A stretch of DNA of 64,000 nt from Candidatus Eiseniibacteriota bacterium (GCA_041946735.1 JBHGAY010000017.1:56009-120008); one strand, 5' to 3'. Shown: positions 55,779 through 63,802, counted from the first letter of the stretch. Numbers and translations: made by a program. Notes: a model not told the origin generated them from the sequence alone.

Positions 55779-56636
55779 CTATCGATACAGTCCCCGCACC
55801 TGGCCCCAGCTCACGTGGGACGTTGCAGTGGGCGAGCAGGGATTCGGATCGCAGTCATATTCCCACGGATTAGGCTCACCGCCCATAGCGATGCAGGTAT
55901 AGTCGTACAGCACCTGGCAGGAGCCGTCGTCGAAGCAACAAGCAACATCCTCATCCTGCGGGGGTATGCCACACCCATCTTCCCCGTTCAGGACGAAGAT
56001 CGTCTGCGAGTCGGGGAATCCGATGTCGCTCACGCCTACCGGTTCCGAGATGCCACAGTCCGGCGCGGCGATGTAAGCATCCTGGAAGGCGCCGGCATCG
56101 TTGGCGCCCGGGTAGAAGGAAACGAGGTCTGCCTCACCGGACGGGGCGTCGATAGCGACGACGAGGTCCGTCGCCTCACCGTCTTGGACGCAGAGGTAGC
56201 CGACCTGAACGTTGATCGTCGAGCCGACGTCGTTCGGGGTGAGGTCGATGCTGGTACGCCACACTTCTCTCAGGTTGGCGAAGAGGAACGGCGCGCCGTT
56301 GTCGATCTCGAAGAGGAAAAGGGTAACGCTCATGTTGCCCGAGAGGTACGAGACGCCGAAGTCCACGCTCTCCACCTGGAAGCTTTCGAGCCCGTGGTCG
56401 TCGTAGAGAAAGAAGCGGCGGAGAAACCAGTTCTGAGTCGTGTACGACCCGGCAACGCCGCAGGCGACCTGCGTGTCGCCGATCGTCGTGATGTCGTAGT
56501 TCTGGTAGACCTGCAGTCTGTCCTGCGGCGTCGTTTCGACCGAATACGACGGGTGATCCACCGTCAGAAACTCCGCGGCGCTTGCCCCGGACACGAGGAA
56601 CAGGATCCCCAGGGCAAGCAGGAACAGCGGCCTCAT
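55779..56636 (-). CDS. Secreted hypothetical protein (paralog A) with a Cys-rich module and SWGQVRGLYR tail
   Basis: Signal peptide; core nearly colinear with 56978..57715. Confidence 0.8.
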   Translation of the reverse strand: MRPLFLLALGILFLVSGASAAEFLTVDHPSYSVETTPQDRLQVYQNYDITTIGDTQVACGVAGSYTTQNWFLRRFFLYDDHGLESFQVESVDFGVSYLSGNMSVTLFLFEIDNGAPFLFANLREVWRTSIDLTPNDVGSTINVQVGYLCVQDGEATDLVVAIDAPSGEADLVSFYPGANDAGAFQDAYIAAPDCGISEPVGVSDIGFPDSQTIFVLNGEDGCGIPPQDEDVACCFDDGSCQVLYDYTCIAMGGEPNPWEYDCDPNPCSPTATSHVSWGQVRGLYR

Positions 56637-56977
56637 GGGCGGCTCCTGATTCTCGGGTCTCCGATCGGTCTGGACCGCTCGCCGTCGCACCCGGGGTACA
56701 CATTCGGTGAGGCGTCTTTGGCGCTCGATCGGAGAATCCCGGACCGGAAATGAAGGAACAGGATCGCGGCGAAGACCTCTCGGCCTCCGTCCTCTCCTTG
56801 GGAACGCTGACATTCTACGCGCTTCGCCGGGCCTTGTCTCTTCCGCTGGGGCGAGGGCGCTCGTTGGCGACGGCGGAGAGATGCGAAGAGGGGACCGGTC
56901 GCCCGGTCCCCTCGCAACTCGGTTTGGCTCCGCCGGCTGGGAAGTAAGGCCGGCCTTGCCGATTGCCGATCGGTTCC

Positions 56978-57715
56978 CTACCGGAACAGCCCCCGGACGG
57001 CCCCCCACGTCGTGGGCGTCGTCGCGACCGGCGGCGGCGGTGGGCCTCCTATGCCCGACTCTCCATTGACGACGAAGATGGTCTGAGAGTCAGGAAAGCC
57101 GATGTCGCTAACTGCCATCGGCTCGGGGACGTCGCAGTTCGCGGCCGCGATGTACGCATCCTGGAAGGCGCCCGCGTCATTAGCAGCCGGGTAGAAGGAG
57201 ACCAAGTTCGGTTCCCCGGACGGCGCCTCGATCGCGACGACCAGATCCTGGCCGATGCCATCGTACATCTCCGCCGAGAGCGGGACGTTGACGAGGAAGC
57301 CCACATCGTTCGGAGTCAGGTCTACCGACTCCCTGGTGATCTCCGTCATGTTGTCGAATCGGAACTCGGATCCGTTCGGGATCTGGAAGACGACGATGTC
57401 GACCGTCATGTCCCCGGTCAGAAAGGAGACGCCGAAGTCGATGCTCTGGACGATGATTCCGGGGTCCAGACCGTGATCCTCGTGGAGGTAGAAGCGTCGA
57501 AGGAACCAGTTCTGGGTCGTGTACGATCCGGCAACGCCGCAGGCGACCTGCGTGTCGCCGATCGTCGTGATGTCGTAGTTCTGATAGACCTGTACTGGTT
57601 CGCGCTGTGGCGGGTCGACCGCATAGCTCGGATGGTCGACCGTCAGTAACTCCGCGGCGCTCGCCCCGGAGGTTACCAGCAGCACTCCGAGGGCGAGAAG
57701 TACATACGGCCTCAT
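56978..57715 (-). CDS. Secreted hypothetical protein (paralog B) with a Pro linker and TWGAVRGLFR tail
   Basis: Signal peptide; shares VYQNYDITTIGDTQVACGVAGSYTTQNWFLRRF with paralog A; AGGAG RBS. Confidence 0.8.
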   Translation of the reverse strand: MRPYVLLALGVLLVTSGASAAELLTVDHPSYAVDPPQREPVQVYQNYDITTIGDTQVACGVAGSYTTQNWFLRRFYLHEDHGLDPGIIVQSIDFGVSFLTGDMTVDIVVFQIPNGSEFRFDNMTEITRESVDLTPNDVGFLVNVPLSAEMYDGIGQDLVVAIEAPSGEPNLVSFYPAANDAGAFQDAYIAAANCDVPEPMAVSDIGFPDSQTIFVVNGESGIGGPPPPPVATTPTTWGAVRGLFR

Positions 57716-57969
57716 GGCATCACTCCTGTGGTCGGGTCGCATGCGAGGATGTGGAGGTCCGGTCGGATGCTCGAGCTGCGCTCTCCTTCTGCCTCACTGC
57801 TCCAGGCACGACCCGCATTCGCACGTCGGAGAACTCGACCGGGTGGGCCCAGCGCCACGTCAATCCCGGTCGGATGGACGCCACCCATTCTACTCCTCCG
57901 CCCGAAACCCGTCGACGAGTGCAGGCCGGCTCCTTCCCGCCCCGCCGACCGTGACCGCAACACGGGTGA

Positions 57970-57998
57970 TTGACGCCGCCGGGGGATCGGAATACCAT
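57970..57998 (+). promoter_or_regulatory. Sigma70-type promoter for the tRNA/aaRS cluster
   Basis: TTGACG-17 nt-TACCAT. Confidence 0.6.
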
Positions 57999-58120
57999 TC
58001 TGTTGCTCGGTCTTCGATGACTTGCGAGGGCAAAGCGACAGCATGCGGCGGACGCACCGGGCTTTCCGCTGTTCGTTTCGTGCGCCTTCCCTGGGCCATC
58101 GCCCGAGTTCGAGTTTCGAT

Positions 58121-58370
58121 GCGCCCGTAGTTCAATGGTCAAGTCGTGGCGGTTTCGTCGCAAATGGTTCCGTTTGGGGCTCCCGTCCGCGTTGCGCACG
58201 GCGGAAGACGCCGGCGCTGAATAGCATCCTAGGTCGCTATTCAAACAAGAGCTGTGTGCCGCAAGGACGGATGGCTCCTGGGAAGTACGGCGCCGAGCGA
58301 TAAGCCTCCAGGCAAAGAACAGTGGACCTATAATCCACGAATGCGGGTTCGATTCCCGTCGGGCGTACCA
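58121..58370 (+). tRNA. tRNA with anticodon UAU (nominally Ile/AUA), interrupted in the D-loop by ~175 nt
   Basis: Acceptor GCGCCCG/CGGGCGT, discriminator A and encoded CCA; U8A9; D-stem GTTC (58130)/GAAC (58317); anticodon arm GTGGA-CCTATAA-TCCAC; 4-nt variable loop; T-arm GCGGG-TTCGATT-CCCGT; A15-U48 compatible. Confidence 0.85.
58140..58315 (+). ncRNA. Structured intervening sequence in the tRNA D-loop (possible intron, class uncertain)
   Basis: Hairpins 58194-58217 and 58218-58243; long-range pairings CCGTCC/GGACGG and GCTGTG/TACGGC. Boundaries are ambiguous by a few nt. Confidence 0.6.
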
Positions 58371-58414
58371 GGTTCCGCGGCCACCTCAAGAGTGCGGAGG
58401 CGCGCGACGACGTC

Positions 58415-59482
58415 ATGGACGACCCGGCCGCCATCGAGACATCGCAGGACGCTTATGTCGACGTGTCCGAGAGCTACGGACGAATCGCCTGCCTCCAGCG
58501 CCTCGTCCCGCTGATCCTCAGAACGAACGAGCACACCTACCTCTCCACCCCGGAACGCGACGATCCGCTGGGCGCCACGTGGCTGGAACTGGGATTGCGC
58601 GGTCTCGAGAATCTGCACGAGCGCTTCCGCCCGAAGGTCCGAAGAGCCGCCGTCATCGGCACCGGCAGTGGCCTCGACGCGATCGGGATCGCGGAGATCT
58701 TCTCGCCCGAATCGATCGTCGCCTCGGACATCCATCCCCGGGCCCTGGAGGCGGCACGCTGGAACGTCGCGGGCTACCTGCGTCCCGAGGTCCGGTGCGA
58801 GCTGCTCCGAAGTGATCTCTTCCGCGGGTACTCTTCAGACACCACCTTCGATCTCGTCTTCGAGAACCTTCCGAACGTTCCGGAGGACGAGGCGACGGGC
58901 GCGAGCCTCCTCGAAGGGATTCGCAGCTCGAGCTGCTACAACGCGTCGGCCTACGTGGCGGATCCGCTCGTCGATCGTCATCTCCTGACGCTGCACTACA
59001 ACTGCCTTCTCGAGGCGCGCGACCATCTGACTCCCGATGGCTGGGTCGTCTCGCTGATCGGCGGCCGGATCCCGTGGGCGGTCGTCGTGGAGACATTCCG
59101 CAAGGCGGGCTTCGGCGCGCGCGTCCTCGAGTTCGGGATCAAGACGCAGACCGAGCCCGGCATCGTCCTGGAAGGCTACGCGCGCGCGGAGGAGGATGGC
59201 TCTCCGCCGTTCCTGTACTACTACCCGCCCGAGTCCTGCCTGAATGCTCTCCCACGCGGGCGGGATGGACGCGGCGATGGCGCCGACCCAGCCGGCACGG
59301 TCGAGGAGGGGAACGCCGCCCTCGATGCGTTTCGCGTCAGCGCCCGCGAAGCGCTCGCGCTCCACCGCAGAGGAAAGAAGGTCTGCCACACCGTCTACGT
59401 CGTGGGGGGGCACGCCCTGGGGGGCCGCGTCGCTGGAGGGACGCCGGCAGCACGCGCGACACAGGCGCCGCCTGCGCAATGA
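58415..59482 (+). CDS. SAM methyltransferase resembling methionine S-methyltransferase (MmtN/MMT-like)
   Basis: Motif I VIGTGSG, SDIHP, SDL, ENLPNV, IGGRIP and C-terminal VSAREAL...CHTVYV. Family assignment is from recalled motif order. Confidence 0.65.
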   Translation: MDDPAAIETSQDAYVDVSESYGRIACLQRLVPLILRTNEHTYLSTPERDDPLGATWLELGLRGLENLHERFRPKVRRAAVIGTGSGLDAIGIAEIFSPESIVASDIHPRALEAARWNVAGYLRPEVRCELLRSDLFRGYSSDTTFDLVFENLPNVPEDEATGASLLEGIRSSSCYNASAYVADPLVDRHLLTLHYNCLLEARDHLTPDGWVVSLIGGRIPWAVVVETFRKAGFGARVLEFGIKTQTEPGIVLEGYARAEEDGSPPFLYYYPPESCLNALPRGRDGRGDGADPAGTVEEGNAALDAFRVSAREALALHRRGKKVCHTVYVVGGHALGGRVAGGTPAARATQAPPAQ

Positions 59483-60207
59483 CCGCGCCCGAACCGTTCA
59501 CCGATCCCGAAGCGATCGACCGGATGGAGGCGGAGCACAGGCCGCTCTGGTCGGCGTTCGTCCGCAGCTTCTCCCCCCTACTCTTTCCCGGCGCCCGTGT
59601 GCTGGATTTCGGCTGCAGCGGAGGGGGACTGCTCCGCCTGCTGTTCGAACGGCAGACGGAAGGGGCCATCCCGGAGATCGCGCTCGCCGCCGGCATCGAC
59701 GTCGACGAGCCGGCGATGAGAACCGTCCTTGCCCGCGCTGCCGGTCGTCCTCCACGGGATCTCCCGATCGTCTTCACAACGGGGCGCCTCGCCGCCTTCC
59801 CGGAGCAGTTCGACCTGGTCGTCTCGCACGAGGTGGTCTATCTCCTTCCGGATCTCCGCGAGACATTTGCGGAGATCCGAGCGGCGCTCCGCGATCAAGG
59901 GCACTTCTGCTTCACGACCGGGTGCCACACGGACAATCCGCTCTTCGCGCGATGGAGGCGCTCGCTCGAGGCCGAAGGCGTCGCCGTCCATGCGCGTGCC
60001 GCGGACGCGTACGAGCGGGCGTTGCGCGATGCCGGATTCATCGAGATCCGAGACGACCGGCTGCGCCTGCGCGAAGAGGAGTATGCCGCCTGGGCCGCAG
60101 CCCGTGGCACGGCGCAACCGAATCCCGCCTGGTTCGCGAGCTCGGCCGAGGAGCGCGACTATTACGTCCGAACCGGCAAGCTGCTTCTCACCGCGCAGAG
60201 GGGGTGA
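59479..60207 (+). CDS. Class I SAM-dependent methyltransferase
   Basis: VLDFGCSGG, GIDV and FDLVVSHEVVYLL motifs; ATGA-coupled to the upstream gene. Confidence 0.85.
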   Translation: MTAPEPFTDPEAIDRMEAEHRPLWSAFVRSFSPLLFPGARVLDFGCSGGGLLRLLFERQTEGAIPEIALAAGIDVDEPAMRTVLARAAGRPPRDLPIVFTTGRLAAFPEQFDLVVSHEVVYLLPDLRETFAEIRAALRDQGHFCFTTGCHTDNPLFARWRRSLEAEGVAVHARAADAYERALRDAGFIEIRDDRLRLREEEYAAWAAARGTAQPNPAWFASSAEERDYYVRTGKLLLTAQRG

Positions 60208-62393
60208 TGAGGATGGGCGGGTACGATCCGGCGGCGATCGAGCCCAAGTGGCAGGAGCGCTGGCGGGAGAGACGCACCTTCGAGAGCCGGCGCGACCCGG
60301 CGCGCCCGAAATACTACGTGTACAATCCAGCGCCTTACGTCACCGGCGCGCTGCACATGGGACATGTCCGCAACTACGCCTGCGGGGACTTCGTGGCGAA
60401 GGTCCACCGTCTGAAGGGGGACGCGGTCCTCTACACGATCGGCTTCGACGCGTTCGGCCTGCCGACGGAGATGGCGGCGATCCGCAACTCCGTCGCGCCG
60501 GAGCAGTGGACCGCGGACTGCCTCGAGCAAATGCGGCGGCAGCTCTCCGCTCTCGGATGCGGCTTCGACTGGTCGCGCTCCTTCCTGACCTGCGAGCCGA
60601 AGTACTACCGGTGGACGCAATGGATCTTCCTGCAGCTCCATGAGAGAGGGCTGATCTACAGCACGGTCGGGACGACCCTATGGTGTCCGGAGTGCGACAC
60701 CTCGCTCGCGCGCGCGCAGGCGGAGGAGGGGCGCTGCTGGATCTGCGGCTCGACGGTCGAGCGCCGCCGGGTGCGCGAGTGGATGCTGCGCGTCTCCCCT
60801 TACCTGGGGCGCCTGCTGCGCGGCCTCGAGAAGACCACCGACCGCAGCGGTCTCGCAGAGCAGGGACAGGGCAACCTGATCGGCCGCCAGGACGGTTTCG
60901 CCGTGCAGCTCCGCGTCGAGGGGGTGAGGGAGCCGCTCACTGCGTTTCTCCCCGACGGCGCCTCGTGGGCGGCGCCGTGCGTGATCGCCGTCGACGCGCG
61001 GGACGAGGAAACGCTGGCCGCTCTCGCCGCGGGCGGGGGCGGGGGTGAGGAGGGAGCGCCGATCGCCCCGGCGCTCGCCGATGCGGTGCTCGCCGCCCTG
61101 CCGGGCGCCCGGCTGACCGGCTGGATCGCGGTCGAGGAGCGGACGGGGAGGCGTCTGCCCGTCGTCGTCGCCCCGCTCTCCGATCCGGCCTTTCTCGATC
61201 AGCCGCTCGTCGTGCCCCTCGCGCAGGCGGCCGGCGAGGGCGCCGCGCCACGGTCGCCAGCGCCGGGCTTCCCGCCCATGACCGTCTACCGGCAGAAGGA
61301 CTTCTCGATCTCGCGCCAGCGGCTCTGGGGCACGCCGATCCCGATCGTCCTTTGCGAGACGTGCGGCGAGGTGCCGGTGCCGGTCGAGGAGCTTCCGGTC
61401 GTGGCGCCCGGGCTCACGATCGATCCGGGCACCGGCCGCCTGCGCCGCGAAGGGGATTCCTGGGACCTCCGGCGATGCCCGCGCTGCGGAGCGCCGGCGC
61501 GGCTCGACCCGCAGGTGATGGACTGCCACATGGACTCCATCTGGCATCCGTTCCGCCCATGCGCGCTCGAATCGACCGAGTTCCTCTTCGATCCCGACGA
61601 GGTCCTCTACTGGATGCCGGCGGACATCATCCAGTTCGGCCGCGACGTGATTCCCTTCATGCTCGATCTGCGCTTCTTCTCCTACTTCCTGCACGATCTC
61701 GGGCTCGTTCCGTTCGAGGAGTTCTGCACGGAGGTGCTGGCGCACGGGCTGATCCTTCACGAGGGACGGAAGATGAGCAAGCACCTCGGGAACGCCGTCA
61801 CGCCCGAGGAGGCGATCGAGCGGTTCGGCGCCGACGCGCTGCGCTTCTACGCCCTCGCGCACGAGGAGCCGAAGAGCGACTGCCGCTGGTCGGAGGAGGG
61901 GATCGATCGCTACCGCGCGCTCCTCGCAACCTTCCATGGCCTCGTCGCATCGGCTCCGGCGGTGGAACGACCGGCCCCGCCACCCGCGACGAGGGACCGG
62001 GAGCCGGGGGCGCGCCGCAGCAAATACGCGAACGTATTCCTGAAGAAAGTCGCCCGAGAGATCGAGGGGCTCGCTTCGTACGTGGAGGAGACGCGGTACG
62101 ACCGCTACGCGAGCGGCGTCGCCCGGATGATCTCCTCGATGGAGTTCTTCGCGACGAACCATCTCGCCCGCGAGCGCGATCCTCACGTTTCGCGCCTGTG
62201 GCGATCGATCCTCGAAGACGCCGTGGCGTATCTCGCTCCCATCGCCCCGCACCTGGCCGAGGAGTGCTGGGAGATGCTGGGGAAGGAGGACTCGATCTTC
62301 TCCGCCGCGCGCCCGCCGGCGGTCACCGCACAGGCGATCCGGGACTTGCTCGAGGACTCGCGCCACATCACGACCCAGGGAAGGGACGCATGA
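60207..62393 (+). CDS. Divergent leucyl-tRNA synthetase paralog (class Ia)
   Basis: IEPKWQERW, LHMGH, FDAFGLP, YYRWTQWIF, SRQRLWGTPIP, KMSK and PIAPHLAEE motifs; ~728 aa. Confidence 0.9.
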   Translation: MRMGGYDPAAIEPKWQERWRERRTFESRRDPARPKYYVYNPAPYVTGALHMGHVRNYACGDFVAKVHRLKGDAVLYTIGFDAFGLPTEMAAIRNSVAPEQWTADCLEQMRRQLSALGCGFDWSRSFLTCEPKYYRWTQWIFLQLHERGLIYSTVGTTLWCPECDTSLARAQAEEGRCWICGSTVERRRVREWMLRVSPYLGRLLRGLEKTTDRSGLAEQGQGNLIGRQDGFAVQLRVEGVREPLTAFLPDGASWAAPCVIAVDARDEETLAALAAGGGGGEEGAPIAPALADAVLAALPGARLTGWIAVEERTGRRLPVVVAPLSDPAFLDQPLVVPLAQAAGEGAAPRSPAPGFPPMTVYRQKDFSISRQRLWGTPIPIVLCETCGEVPVPVEELPVVAPGLTIDPGTGRLRREGDSWDLRRCPRCGAPARLDPQVMDCHMDSIWHPFRPCALESTEFLFDPDEVLYWMPADIIQFGRDVIPFMLDLRFFSYFLHDLGLVPFEEFCTEVLAHGLILHEGRKMSKHLGNAVTPEEAIERFGADALRFYALAHEEPKSDCRWSEEGIDRYRALLATFHGLVASAPAVERPAPPPATRDREPGARRSKYANVFLKKVAREIEGLASYVEETRYDRYASGVARMISSMEFFATNHLARERDPHVSRLWRSILEDAVAYLAPIAPHLAEECWEMLGKEDSIFSAARPPAVTAQAIRDLLEDSRHITTQGRDA

Positions 62394-62409: not shown

Positions 62410-63222
62410 ATGACGCAGACCGTATTCGATCGATTTCGATCCGCCTTGGCGTCCGGAATCGAACGGCTGGAACGCGCCCGTCGGAGCGGCGAGCCGCGCG
62501 CGCTCTGGCGGGAGGCTCTCGCGCTCGAGCACGTGATCCAGTGCGACCTCCTCTCCCTTCGAGAGGAAGAGGAGGTGATCGGCACGCTCGAGCCCGAGCG
62601 AGTCGCCCTCTGTCGCGACATCTTCTGCGTCCTCGAGACGCAGATCGAGAGCAGCTTCGCCGCGATGGCGCTGTCCGGCGGCGACGCGGTCCTCGCGCGG
62701 ATCGACGGGATCACCGAGAACTACCTGGTCCGCTACGAGGAGCTGGCGCGAAAGGAGATCGCGCTCGCCGGGATGACGGGGCGCGATCGCGTTCTGTTCA
62801 TCGGGAGCGGCCCGCTGCCGATCACCGCGATCGAGTATCACCGTCAGACGGGGTGCGAGGTGGACTGCGTGGACTTCTCGCCGCAGGCGATCGACACCTC
62901 GCACGAAGTGCTAGGGCGCCTGCGGCTCGATTCGGCCATCCACCCGCAACTTCTCCGCGGCGAGAACGTCCCCGCCGGCGGCTGGACGGTCGTCCTGGTC
63001 GGTGTGCTCGCCCGTCCGAAGAGGGAGATCTTCGAGAATCTCGCGAGGGTGTGCCCGGACGGCTGCCGCGTTCTCGCGCGGACCACGTTCGGCCTCCGCG
63101 GCCTGATCTACGAACCGATGGGGTGGGATCCCGCGAGCCTCGGCGGCTTCCGGATGACCGGCACGAACGAGGCGCGAGCGGACCAGATCATCTCGGCGAT
63201 CGGCTACGTGCTGGGGCGTTGA
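62410..63222 (+). CDS. Nicotianamine synthase-like aminocarboxypropyl transferase
   Basis: Y..RYEELARKE, VLFIGSGPLPITAI and RTTFGLRGLIYEP motifs. Confidence 0.8.
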   Translation: MTQTVFDRFRSALASGIERLERARRSGEPRALWREALALEHVIQCDLLSLREEEEVIGTLEPERVALCRDIFCVLETQIESSFAAMALSGGDAVLARIDGITENYLVRYEELARKEIALAGMTGRDRVLFIGSGPLPITAIEYHRQTGCEVDCVDFSPQAIDTSHEVLGRLRLDSAIHPQLLRGENVPAGGWTVVLVGVLARPKREIFENLARVCPDGCRVLARTTFGLRGLIYEPMGWDPASLGGFRMTGTNEARADQIISAIGYVLGR

Positions 63223-63235
63223 GGCGGGCGGGGCG

Positions 63236-63802
63236 TCAGAGGTCCAGCTCGTCGCTGACCCCCTGCATCGCGACCAGCGCAATCCCCGCGAACTCGGCCG
63301 TATCGATGCCGATCTCCTCGCACTCCCGGATCGTCTCCCGGTTCACGCTCGAGGCGAACCGGTCGTCCTTGATCCGCTTCGCGACCGACTTCGCTTTCAC
63401 GGAGGCGAGCTTCTTGTCCGGCAGGATCAAGGCGGTCGAGACGATGAGGCCCGTGATCGTCTCCCCGGCGGCGAGGGCGTGATCGAGACGGCTCTGGCGC
63501 GGTTCGGTCGTCGATAGCCGGTTGTGCCGGCGGATGGCGGCAACGACCTCCGGCTCCACCCCGTTCGCCTCGAGGATCGGCGCGCTCCGGCTGCCGTGAA
63601 CGGCAGGATCGGCCTGCGTGATCTCGATGTCGATGTCGTGCAGGAGTCCGGCGATTCCCCACACGTCCGGGTCCTCGCCGAGGCGCGCCGCGAGAGCGCG
63701 GAGCACCGCCTCGGACGCGAGGCTGTGTTTGAGGATTCTCGGGTCGGCGACGTGCTGCCGGAGTAGCGCCAGCGCCTTCTCACGATCGATGCCCGCGGAC
63801 AT
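63236..63802 (-). CDS. HDIG/HD-domain hydrolase
   Basis: KHSLASE, GLLHDID, RRHN and FASSVNRE motifs. Confidence 0.85.
   Translation of the reverse strand: MSAGIDREKALALLRQHVADPRILKHSLASEAVLRALAARLGEDPDVWGIAGLLHDIDIEITQADPAVHGSRSAPILEANGVEPEVVAAIRRHNRLSTTEPRQSRLDHALAAGETITGLIVSTALILPDKKLASVKAKSVAKRIKDDRFASSVNRETIRECEEIGIDTAEFAGIALVAMQGVSDELDL

Follow-up and report, generated by a model that had tools for sequence, protein, structure and literature searches.

The stretch examined here (the window) comprises 64,000 nucleotides (nt) of Candidatus Eiseniibacteriota bacterium (GCA_041946735.1, JBHGAY010000017.1:56009-120008), a rare soil bacterium of 68% GC that also encodes a tmRNA. In a 670-nt non-coding gap it carries a transfer RNA (tRNA) gene split within its D-loop: positions 58121-58139 and 58317-58370 of the plus strand encode a complete tRNA, with about 177 nt between the halves, so that the D-loop measures 183 nt (58134-58316). 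Four genes follow on the same strand, beginning 44 nt downstream, and encode two methyltransferases dependent on S-adenosylmethionine (SAM), MT1 and MT2, a minimal paralog of leucyl-tRNA synthetase (LeuRS), and a nicotianamine-synthase-like enzyme. The features of the locus are:

57970..57998, + strand: match to a sigma-70-like promoter (TTGACG-17-TACCAT), some 120 nt before the 5' end of the tRNA; a consensus match only
58121..58139, + strand: 5' part of the tRNA, with acceptor strand (58121-58127), U8 and A9, D-stem strand (58130-58133) and D-loop residues A14, A15, U16, G18, G19 and U20
58140..58316, + strand: structured D-loop insert, with A-rich linkers, basal rod, hairpins A and B and a terminal CAA(A), as predicted by constrained and unconstrained folds
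58143-58191 paired with 58260-58313, + strand: basal rod of the insert, from the constrained fold
58194-58217, + strand: hairpin A of the insert, loop GGAAG
58218-58243, + strand: hairpin B of the insert, loop containing the palindrome CCUAGG
58317..58370, + strand: 3' part of the tRNA, with the 3' strand of the D-stem, A26, anticodon arm, variable region, T-arm, 3' strand of the acceptor stem, A73 (58367) and CCA (58368-58370)
58415..59482, + strand: MT1, a SAM methyltransferase of 355 amino acids (aa) with a HemK/MTS-like fold
59479..60207, + strand: MT2, a class I SAM methyltransferase whose ATG overlaps the MT1 stop codon (ATGA)
60207..62393 (start at 60207 or 60213), + strand: minimal LeuRS paralog, with the motifs HMGH (HIGH) and KMSKH (KMSKS) kept
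62410..63222, + strand: nicotianamine-synthase-like enzyme of the 3-amino-3-carboxypropyl / aminobutanoyl transferase type (PF03059)

The acceptor stem (GCGCCCG/CGGGCGT) has 7 base pairs, including a G1-U72 pair; the D-stem is GTTC/GAAC, and the D-loop begins with AATGGT and has A21 as its last residue. These are followed by the anticodon arm GTGGA-CCTATAA-TCCAC, with the anticodon UAU (TAT at 58329-58331), a 4-nt variable region (GAAT), and the T-arm GCGGG-TTCGATT-CCCGT, and the CCA end is encoded in the gene after A73. The conserved and tertiary positions U8, A14, G18G19, A21, A15:U48, T54T55C56, A58 and G53:C61 are all kept, so the complete cloverleaf claimed by the first-pass annotation, a reading of the sequence alone, holds at every position checked. 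The letters it quoted are also correct (U58139, G58312, CCGTCC at 58183-58188, GGACGG at 58265-58270, GCTGTG at 58251-58256 and TACGGC at 58286-58291). Position 33 (58328) is C in the window and U in its relatives G004, L017 and L018, U33 being near-universal in tRNAs. Like C33, the G1-U72 pair is specific to the window's copy.

Standard searches pass over this gene. ARAGORN called no tRNA on the window, and Rfam at gathering scores gave no match in the whole 64 kb; at E<=10 over 58000-58500, the Rfam tRNA model aligned to the 3' part only (20.1 bits), and no other relevant family appeared. With the insert removed in silico, ARAGORN at default settings reported a 76-nt tRNA-Ile(tat), and at 95% thresholds it called a tRNA at 20/20 combinations of insert boundaries. 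A strict split-tRNA scan demanded 7/7 pairs in the acceptor stem, 4/4 in the D-stem, at least 4/5 in the anticodon stem, 5/5 in the T-stem and a T-loop TTCRANN, and allowed a D-loop of up to 400 nt. Across both strands of the 4.89-Mb genome (9.8 Mb), it returned 29 normal tRNAs and one gene with a D-loop longer than 12 nt, that of the window. The split in the D-loop is thus borne out by direct reading, by the strict scan, and by ARAGORN after in silico deletion. Five over-long ARAGORN tRNAs elsewhere in the same genome (80-93 nt; C1:54538-54630, C27:23834-23925, C25:34884-34969, C4:120706-120785 and C5:54894-54973) have poor stems and 75-82% GC, and are most likely false positives.

Homologous genes were compared among the window's genome (G000), G004, which belongs to another genus of the same family, and the metagenome contigs L017 and L018. 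Expanded D-loops occur in three lineages, measuring 183 nt in the window, 238 nt in G004 and 241 nt in L017/L018; ARAGORN and the full-length Rfam tRNA model fail on the expanded genes, and Rfam aligns the 3' part alone in the relatives as well. A BLAST search with the 250 nt of the gene against 60 related genomes and G000 returned, beyond its own copy, the 3' half of the G004 gene and the ends of unrelated tRNA-Arg and tRNA-Asp genes; the 5' half of the G004 gene was read upstream of the BLAST match (GCGTCCG-TA-GCTC-AATCGG). In a metagenome search with MT1, covering the best 80 of 206 relatives, a split tRNA was found in L017 and L018 only, the scan having skipped L001, L002 and L014-L016, which are duplicates of the same places. 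Among these loci the full operon is present in L017 only; the L018 contig stops within MT1. At the other loci, the MT1 homologs are distant (28-38% identity) and have different surroundings. A profile built from a two-sequence MT1 alignment and searched against genome contigs found G004's own contig only. MT1 is present in 2/206 genomes of the phylum and has 24 relatives in the protein collection. The anticodon loop is CUUAUAA in G004, L017 and L018 and CCUAUAA in the window, and the variable region spans 4-5 nt across the homologs. Neighbouring proteins share 64-70% identity between G004 and L017, and 41-48% between the window and the other lineages; no alignment is possible between the insert of the window and the G004/L017 type.

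Between G004 and L017, the insert is 77% identical (178/230, with 6 gap columns) and the tRNA halves are 96-100% identical, whereas 200 nt of upstream intergenic DNA reach 58%, equal to the shuffle level of 59%, and third codon positions of the synthetase gene reach 49%. Substitutions within the insert are spread 22/22/19 over the codon phases. Because they show no three-base periodicity, and because there is no phase signal in GC content at third codon positions over 57700-58400, we rejected the possibility that the insert is protein-coding. A consensus fold of the relatives, fitted with the cloverleaf enforced, has 95.7% of its cells paired. It contains 7 pairs with compensatory double changes; six slid controls gave 0-2 such pairs and shuffles gave 2.6 +/- 1.2, with 1/500 of the shuffles reaching 7. 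The 7 pairs are located in both the basal helices (3 and 4) and the distal helices (5, 6 and 7). The search for homologs and covariation that the earlier reading had proposed therefore yielded both, and the insert is conserved, covarying and under selection.

These data also bear on whether the element is a disrupted tRNA pseudogene in decay, the scar of a mobile element or an artefact of assembly. Its rejection by standard scanners and the C33 and G1-U72 of the window copy would be in keeping with decay. However, the 250 nt are present as one copy in the genome, so the element is not a miniature inverted-repeat transposable element (MITE); it recurs in three lineages with conserved synteny, and its insert is far better conserved than neutral sites, with compensatory changes. 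Short contigs from other public runs show 0 differences, those of X3 and X4 spanning the 5' junction and that of X5 extending to 58316; contigs of X3-X6 aligned at 80% likeness gave short identical pieces and no variants, with none from X6. Metagenomes in which this DNA is present come from soil, industrial waste and landfill. A multi-copy MITE and a lack of covariation had been named at the outset as grounds for dismissal, and we found neither. We consider decay or artefact scarcely credible; the element is a real RNA gene, maintained by selection.

The insertion site lies between G19/U20 and A21, leaving A14, A15, G18, G19 and A21 undisturbed, and the insert is predicted to fold into a branched rod. 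Enforcing the cloverleaf costs 0.6 kcal/mol (-104.5 against -105.1 kcal/mol for the unconstrained fold), and for this reason the insert is expected to fold as a separate domain. In either type of insert, a long imperfect rod is connected to the D-loop through single-stranded, A-rich linkers of 6-11 nt and terminates at a junction with two or three hairpins, and CAA stands directly 5' of the 3' strand of the D-stem. A separate observation is that a terminal loop of each type holds a 6-nt palindrome, CCTAGG in the window (58228-58233) and GGCGCC in L013/L017 (helix 8 loop, at about columns 192-197 of their alignment); such palindromes could permit dimerisation of the RNA through kissing loops.

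Is the insert an intron? The first-pass annotation preferred a minimal group I intron and offered a group II domain V as an alternative, while also allowing for a tRNA-like RNA with a permanent extension, which standard scanners would probably miss. This last possibility agrees with our results, whereas the group I reading does not. Rfam intron and ribozyme families gave no match at E<=10 in 58000-58500, nor at E<=5 in two relatives, G004 (L002) and L018. Three of the pairs in the proposed P1 (AUGGU/GUCGU) are wobbles and its loop has 3 nt; the other lineages show no equivalent pairing, with A or U after G19 and no complementary guide. The base preceding the conserved CAA at the 3' junction, read as the terminal omega-G, is G in the window and U in the relatives. 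Of the interleaved P3/P7-like pair, CCGTCC/GGACGG belongs to the nested basal rod of the minimum-energy fold and not to a pseudoknot. The suggested domain V at 58249-58277 is an imperfect hairpin with no group II family at E<=10, and a group II intron was rejected because 177 nt are too few for its six domains and no model matched.

A self-splicing intron in the broader sense, be it minimal group I, a group II remnant or a new ribozyme class, would be expected to be structured, conserved and covarying, as the insert is. In the window, a U precedes the intron first proposed and a G ends it, and bacterial tRNA genes do host group I introns (PMC4033280, in the part available). Nevertheless, the accessible text of the same article places the known bacterial tRNA introns, all group I, in the anticodon loop, mostly at 37/38. 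Moreover, the relatives lack both the P1-like pairing and the terminal G, the fold that covariation supports is nested, a branched rod with no P3-P7 pseudoknot, no intron or ribozyme model matches, and 177 nt fall below known group I sizes and far below those of group II. We therefore hold self-splicing to be very improbable. An archaeal-type, protein-spliced intron likewise finds no support: a search for the splicing endonuclease EndA (PF01974) gave 0 matches in G000, whose assembly is 94.8% complete, and matched 4 archaea as controls, and the predicted base of the rod offers single-nucleotide bulges and long single-stranded linkers but no bulge-helix-bulge (3-4-3).

The insert might instead be an intervening sequence removed by host enzymes, with an RNase III-type cut of the basal rod leaving either a two-piece tRNA, whose acceptor and D stems would keep the pieces associated, or one rejoined by RtcB; the LeuRS paralog would then be served by a tRNA(UAU) of normal size. 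The insert ends do form a long imperfect helix of the kind that double-strand-specific ribonucleases target (about 40 base pairs in the window, H3 and H4 in the relatives), and the D-loop residues required for folding are all located outside the insert. RtcB is encoded in G000 and G004; however, its gene lies on another contig in G000 and about 170 kb away in G004, it is common (6/10 bacterial control genomes, 10/14 of all), and the operon contains no dedicated nuclease. The distal hairpins and loops are conserved, with compensatory changes in helices 5-7, which a discarded spacer would not need. Host excision thus appears unlikely to us, though it is the strongest competitor to a permanently retained domain.

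Turning to the operon, the order after the tRNA, namely MT1, MT2, LeuRS paralog and nicotianamine-synthase-like enzyme, is the same in 3/3 lineages where it can be read. The four genes are tightly packed: MT1 and MT2 overlap at ATGA, and the next junction is either an overlap at TGATG or a gap of 5 nt. The best PDB match of the MT1 family profile is 7vvv (E=5.5e-8, 35 bits), with which the Atlas lead agrees; 7vvv is the methionine S-methyltransferase MmtN, according to the part of PMC9135737 available, and a putative MmtN-like function for MT1 is a lead from profile similarity. The nicotianamine-synthase-like enzyme is kept in all three lineages; it scores 53.7 bits against PF03059, for which the gathering threshold is 27.1, over profile positions 17-259 of 276, and its PDB matches are thermonicotianamine synthase (E=3e-18) and CntL (E=3e-7).

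The position of the tRNA raises the question of whether it is a cis-acting leader of the operon messenger RNA, a tRNA mimic that the LeuRS paralog would bind for autoregulation and that would be neither released nor chargeable. The tRNA stands on the same strand, 44-150 nt from the first gene in the three lineages, with a promoter-like site upstream and no terminator-like site seen on the plus strand between tRNA and MT1. Known synthetase operators, however, mimic parts of a tRNA only, whereas this gene keeps features that matter only to a processed tRNA, including the 7-bp acceptor stem, A73, encoded CCA, the TTCGA T-loop and G18G19. Its halves, moreover, are conserved between G004 and L017 to the degree given above. 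A purely cis-acting role accordingly strikes us as quite unlikely.

The LeuRS paralog scores 421.4 bits against TIGR00396, below the cut-off of 548.4, compared with 663-908 bits for the canonical LeuRS of 5 family genomes. In an alignment to the Thermus thermophilus enzyme (1h3n), AFLPDG stands in place of the editing motif TTRPDT, the editing region falls short by about 55 residues, the leucine-specific domain (T. thermophilus residues 578-634) is deleted, and the C-terminal domain (residues 819-878), which clamps the tRNA elbow in ordinary bacterial LeuRS, has no counterpart. The paralog thus has a degenerate editing site and has lost its leucine-specific and C-terminal domains. A search of 5.8 billion protein clusters placed it in a clade of 13 members (at 45-61% identity, and 688-762 aa long apart from one fragment), below which scores fall to canonical LeuRS at 34% identity. 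The CP1 editing domain PF13603 occurs in 0/13 clade members and in 107/107 of the other proteins among the matches listed. G004 encodes a canonical LeuRS as well as the paralog, and a canonical LeuRS is present in all five other family genomes. A self-resistance LeuRS, protecting against a LeuRS-targeting antibiotic, was considered and set aside, as the paralog is without domains that a functional housekeeping LeuRS needs and has its own tRNA.

Among the tRNAs of the same genome, tRNA-Arg(UCU) comes nearest to the body of this tRNA, which is of class I. Bacterial Arg identity resides in A20, C35 and U/G36, and Leu identity in A73 and tertiary features rather than the anticodon (PMC9976931, in the portion available). 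In the window, the insert interrupts the D-loop just after U20, position 35 is A, and A73 is kept. The D-loop domain and A35 would therefore abolish Arg identity, with A73 staying. Across the lineages, the anticodon loop is conserved (C-Y-U-A-U-A-A), whereas the anticodon stem has changed completely. The cognate codon AUA is one of the rarest, at about 0.4-0.6 per 1000 codons in crude sets of open reading frames; it occurs in 0/1,596 codons of the four operon genes, and is scattered, at least one being present in 821/5,307 crude open reading frames with no clustering near the operon, so we rejected the idea of AUA-rich target genes. TilS, which serves normal AUA reading, is encoded.

A decoding role can still be imagined, by analogy with pylTSBCD, in which the locus would be a portable code cassette: the SAM enzymes would make a non-standard amino acid, derived from methionine or SAM, and the paralog would load it onto the UAU tRNA for insertion at AUA. 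The D-loop domain would then be tolerated or removed, in one variant as a new class of self-splicing or self-processing RNA, and the tRNA would have to compete with tRNA-Ile2 at AUA. The likeness to pylTSBCD is real in that both are transferable clusters starting with an atypical tRNA and encoding its own synthetase and three enzymes of amino-acid chemistry, and both are patchily distributed (here, 2/206 genomes of the phylum). They differ in that PylRS is a class II enzyme paired with the anticodon CUA, whereas here a derivative of class I LeuRS is paired with UAU, and in that the D-loop of tRNA-Pyl is reduced, in contrast to a domain of 170-240 nt here. We rate this code-cassette scenario as decidedly unlikely.

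The explanation that we favour, with a confidence evenly balanced between acceptance and doubt, is that the LeuRS paralog has a dedicated tRNA of its own, which is permanently expanded. The expanded tRNA would be co-transcribed with the downstream operon, freed by ordinary tRNA end-processing, and would retain its D-loop domain in the mature RNA. We envision this RNA as the dedicated substrate that the co-encoded paralog charges; the paralog keeps the motifs for adenylation and transfer, and has lost its elbow-clamping domain just where the RNA domain emerges. That domain, at position 20/21 in the solvent-exposed beta region of the D-loop, would fold independently and give the paralog and the three SAM-dependent enzymes a handle for identity or docking. 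It would also serve as an anti-determinant by destroying the A20 identity element of a tRNA-Arg-like body, and would probably keep the expanded RNA off the ribosome, leaving it a non-translational carrier role. The C33 of the window's copy fits such a relaxed ribosomal constraint. The carried amino acid would probably be Leu- or Met-like, made or tailored by the MmtN-like methyltransferase, MT2 and the aminobutanoyl transferase. Since Arg identity would be abolished, A73 is kept, the elbow module is lost, AUA is rare and TilS is present, the data fit a dedicated, mutually adapted tRNA-synthetase pair, set apart from normal translation and feeding or using chemistry of the methionine/SAM type.

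Several observations weigh against this explanation, in addition to the helix-forming insert ends and the RtcB genes noted above. The covariation derives from three sequences, effectively two lineages, and related sequences can exceed shuffles in covariation without any structure. For so GC-rich a sequence, the fold stability is unexceptional and modest (z = -2.29 for the window, with 4/200 shuffles as stable, and a second z of -1.53), and the shared architecture of rod and terminal hairpins was judged by eye between insert types that cannot be aligned. A canonical LeuRS above the NCBIfam cut-off was not found in the 94.8% complete G000; this is probably an assembly gap or incompleteness, although the paralog might have a housekeeping role in G000. 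The conserved anticodon loop could point to real decoding rather than to synthetase identity. Finally, IleRS might charge the expanded tRNA, because U12-A23, A35, U36, A37, A38 and A73 likewise count among the identity elements of bacterial tRNA-Ile in the available part of PMC9976931.

The locus can be compared with several other known systems. Class II tRNAs (Leu, Ser, bacterial Tyr and Sec) also bear an extra helix off the core that is kept in the mature molecule and used or tolerated by the synthetase, but theirs lies in the variable region and is at most about 20-25 nt, whereas the present element lies in the D-loop and is branched and 170-240 nt long. The group I introns of cyanobacterial tRNA-Leu(UAA), tRNA-fMet and Azoarcus tRNA-Ile are structured inserts of about 200 nt; they sit in the anticodon loop (PMC4033280, in the part available) and have a group I core, in contrast to the nested rod in the D-loop here. 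Archaeal non-canonical introns and split tRNAs likewise interrupt the tRNA outside 37/38, including the D-arm region; here, however, the host is a bacterium, neither EndA nor a predicted bulge-helix-bulge was found, and the insert is much longer than most. In the RNase III-removed intervening sequences of 23S ribosomal RNA, both insert ends form a long helix within a loop of a stable RNA, but those are sporadic and poorly conserved, whereas this insert is conserved in three lineages with covarying distal hairpins; we know of no RNase III-removed intervening sequence in a tRNA. Finally, tmRNA and YrlA combine a tRNA-like module and a large structured RNA within a single stable molecule, with their anticodon arm replaced; here the whole cloverleaf is intact, and Rfam matches neither. 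In the full-text literature that we searched, neither a bacterial tRNA with an expanded D-loop nor such an operon is described, though articles outside that set could hold a description, and the combination of a giant-D-loop tRNA, a LeuRS paralog and three SAM enzymes has apparently not been described before.

tRNAs are among the most size-constrained RNAs. If the favoured explanation is true, a tRNA with all its folding determinants and a conserved elbow domain of 170-240 nt would represent a new structural class, and standard tRNA scanners miss such D-loop-expanded genes. Having shed its proofreading and elbow-gripping modules, the paralog looks, together with its tRNA, like a natural orthogonal tRNA/synthetase pair tied to sulfonium/aminobutanoyl (SAM) chemistry. 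Were the RNA an aminoacyl carrier for a small-molecule pathway, tRNA-dependent biosynthesis would extend to a dedicated non-translational tRNA. Decoding of AUA would instead mean a new natural expansion of the code, and if the insert is excised, no earlier case of an intervening sequence in the D-loop of a bacterial tRNA would be known.

The surroundings of the operon offer some further observations. Proteins of about 250-410 aa without a Pfam match flank it in all three lineages:

56978-57742 and 55779-57008, both - strand, in the window: members of the flanking protein family
13164-18001 of L013: five tandem copies
9777-10649 of L017: a further member

This family has an N-terminal hydrophobic, signal-like segment and an invariant C-terminal TTWGxVKGLYR, with more copies on contigs C71 and C25; this may represent a new sorting signal at the C-terminus, or connect the family with what the operon produces. 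A gene for an HD-domain protein (63236-63802, - strand) converges on the operon end in the window and is not adjacent to it in G004 or L017.

On the 2.7-kb metagenome contig L031, an MT1 homolog (32%) has an MT2 homolog (34%) directly downstream, together at 1067-2666, and the strict scan of the 1 kb upstream of the MT1 homolog gave no split tRNA; this contig may hold a more distant form of the module. In another context, distant MT1 homologs (28-33%) are directly followed by a cupin resembling dimethylsulfoniopropionate lyase (PF16867) in 6/6 loci (L054, L063, L071, L075, L076 and L088). In 4 of these 6, a pyridoxal-phosphate enzyme precedes the MT1-like gene, of the Cys/Met-metabolism type in L054, L076 and L088 and a class I/II aminotransferase in L071, and this arrangement looks like a cluster for a sulfonium or methionine-derived small molecule.

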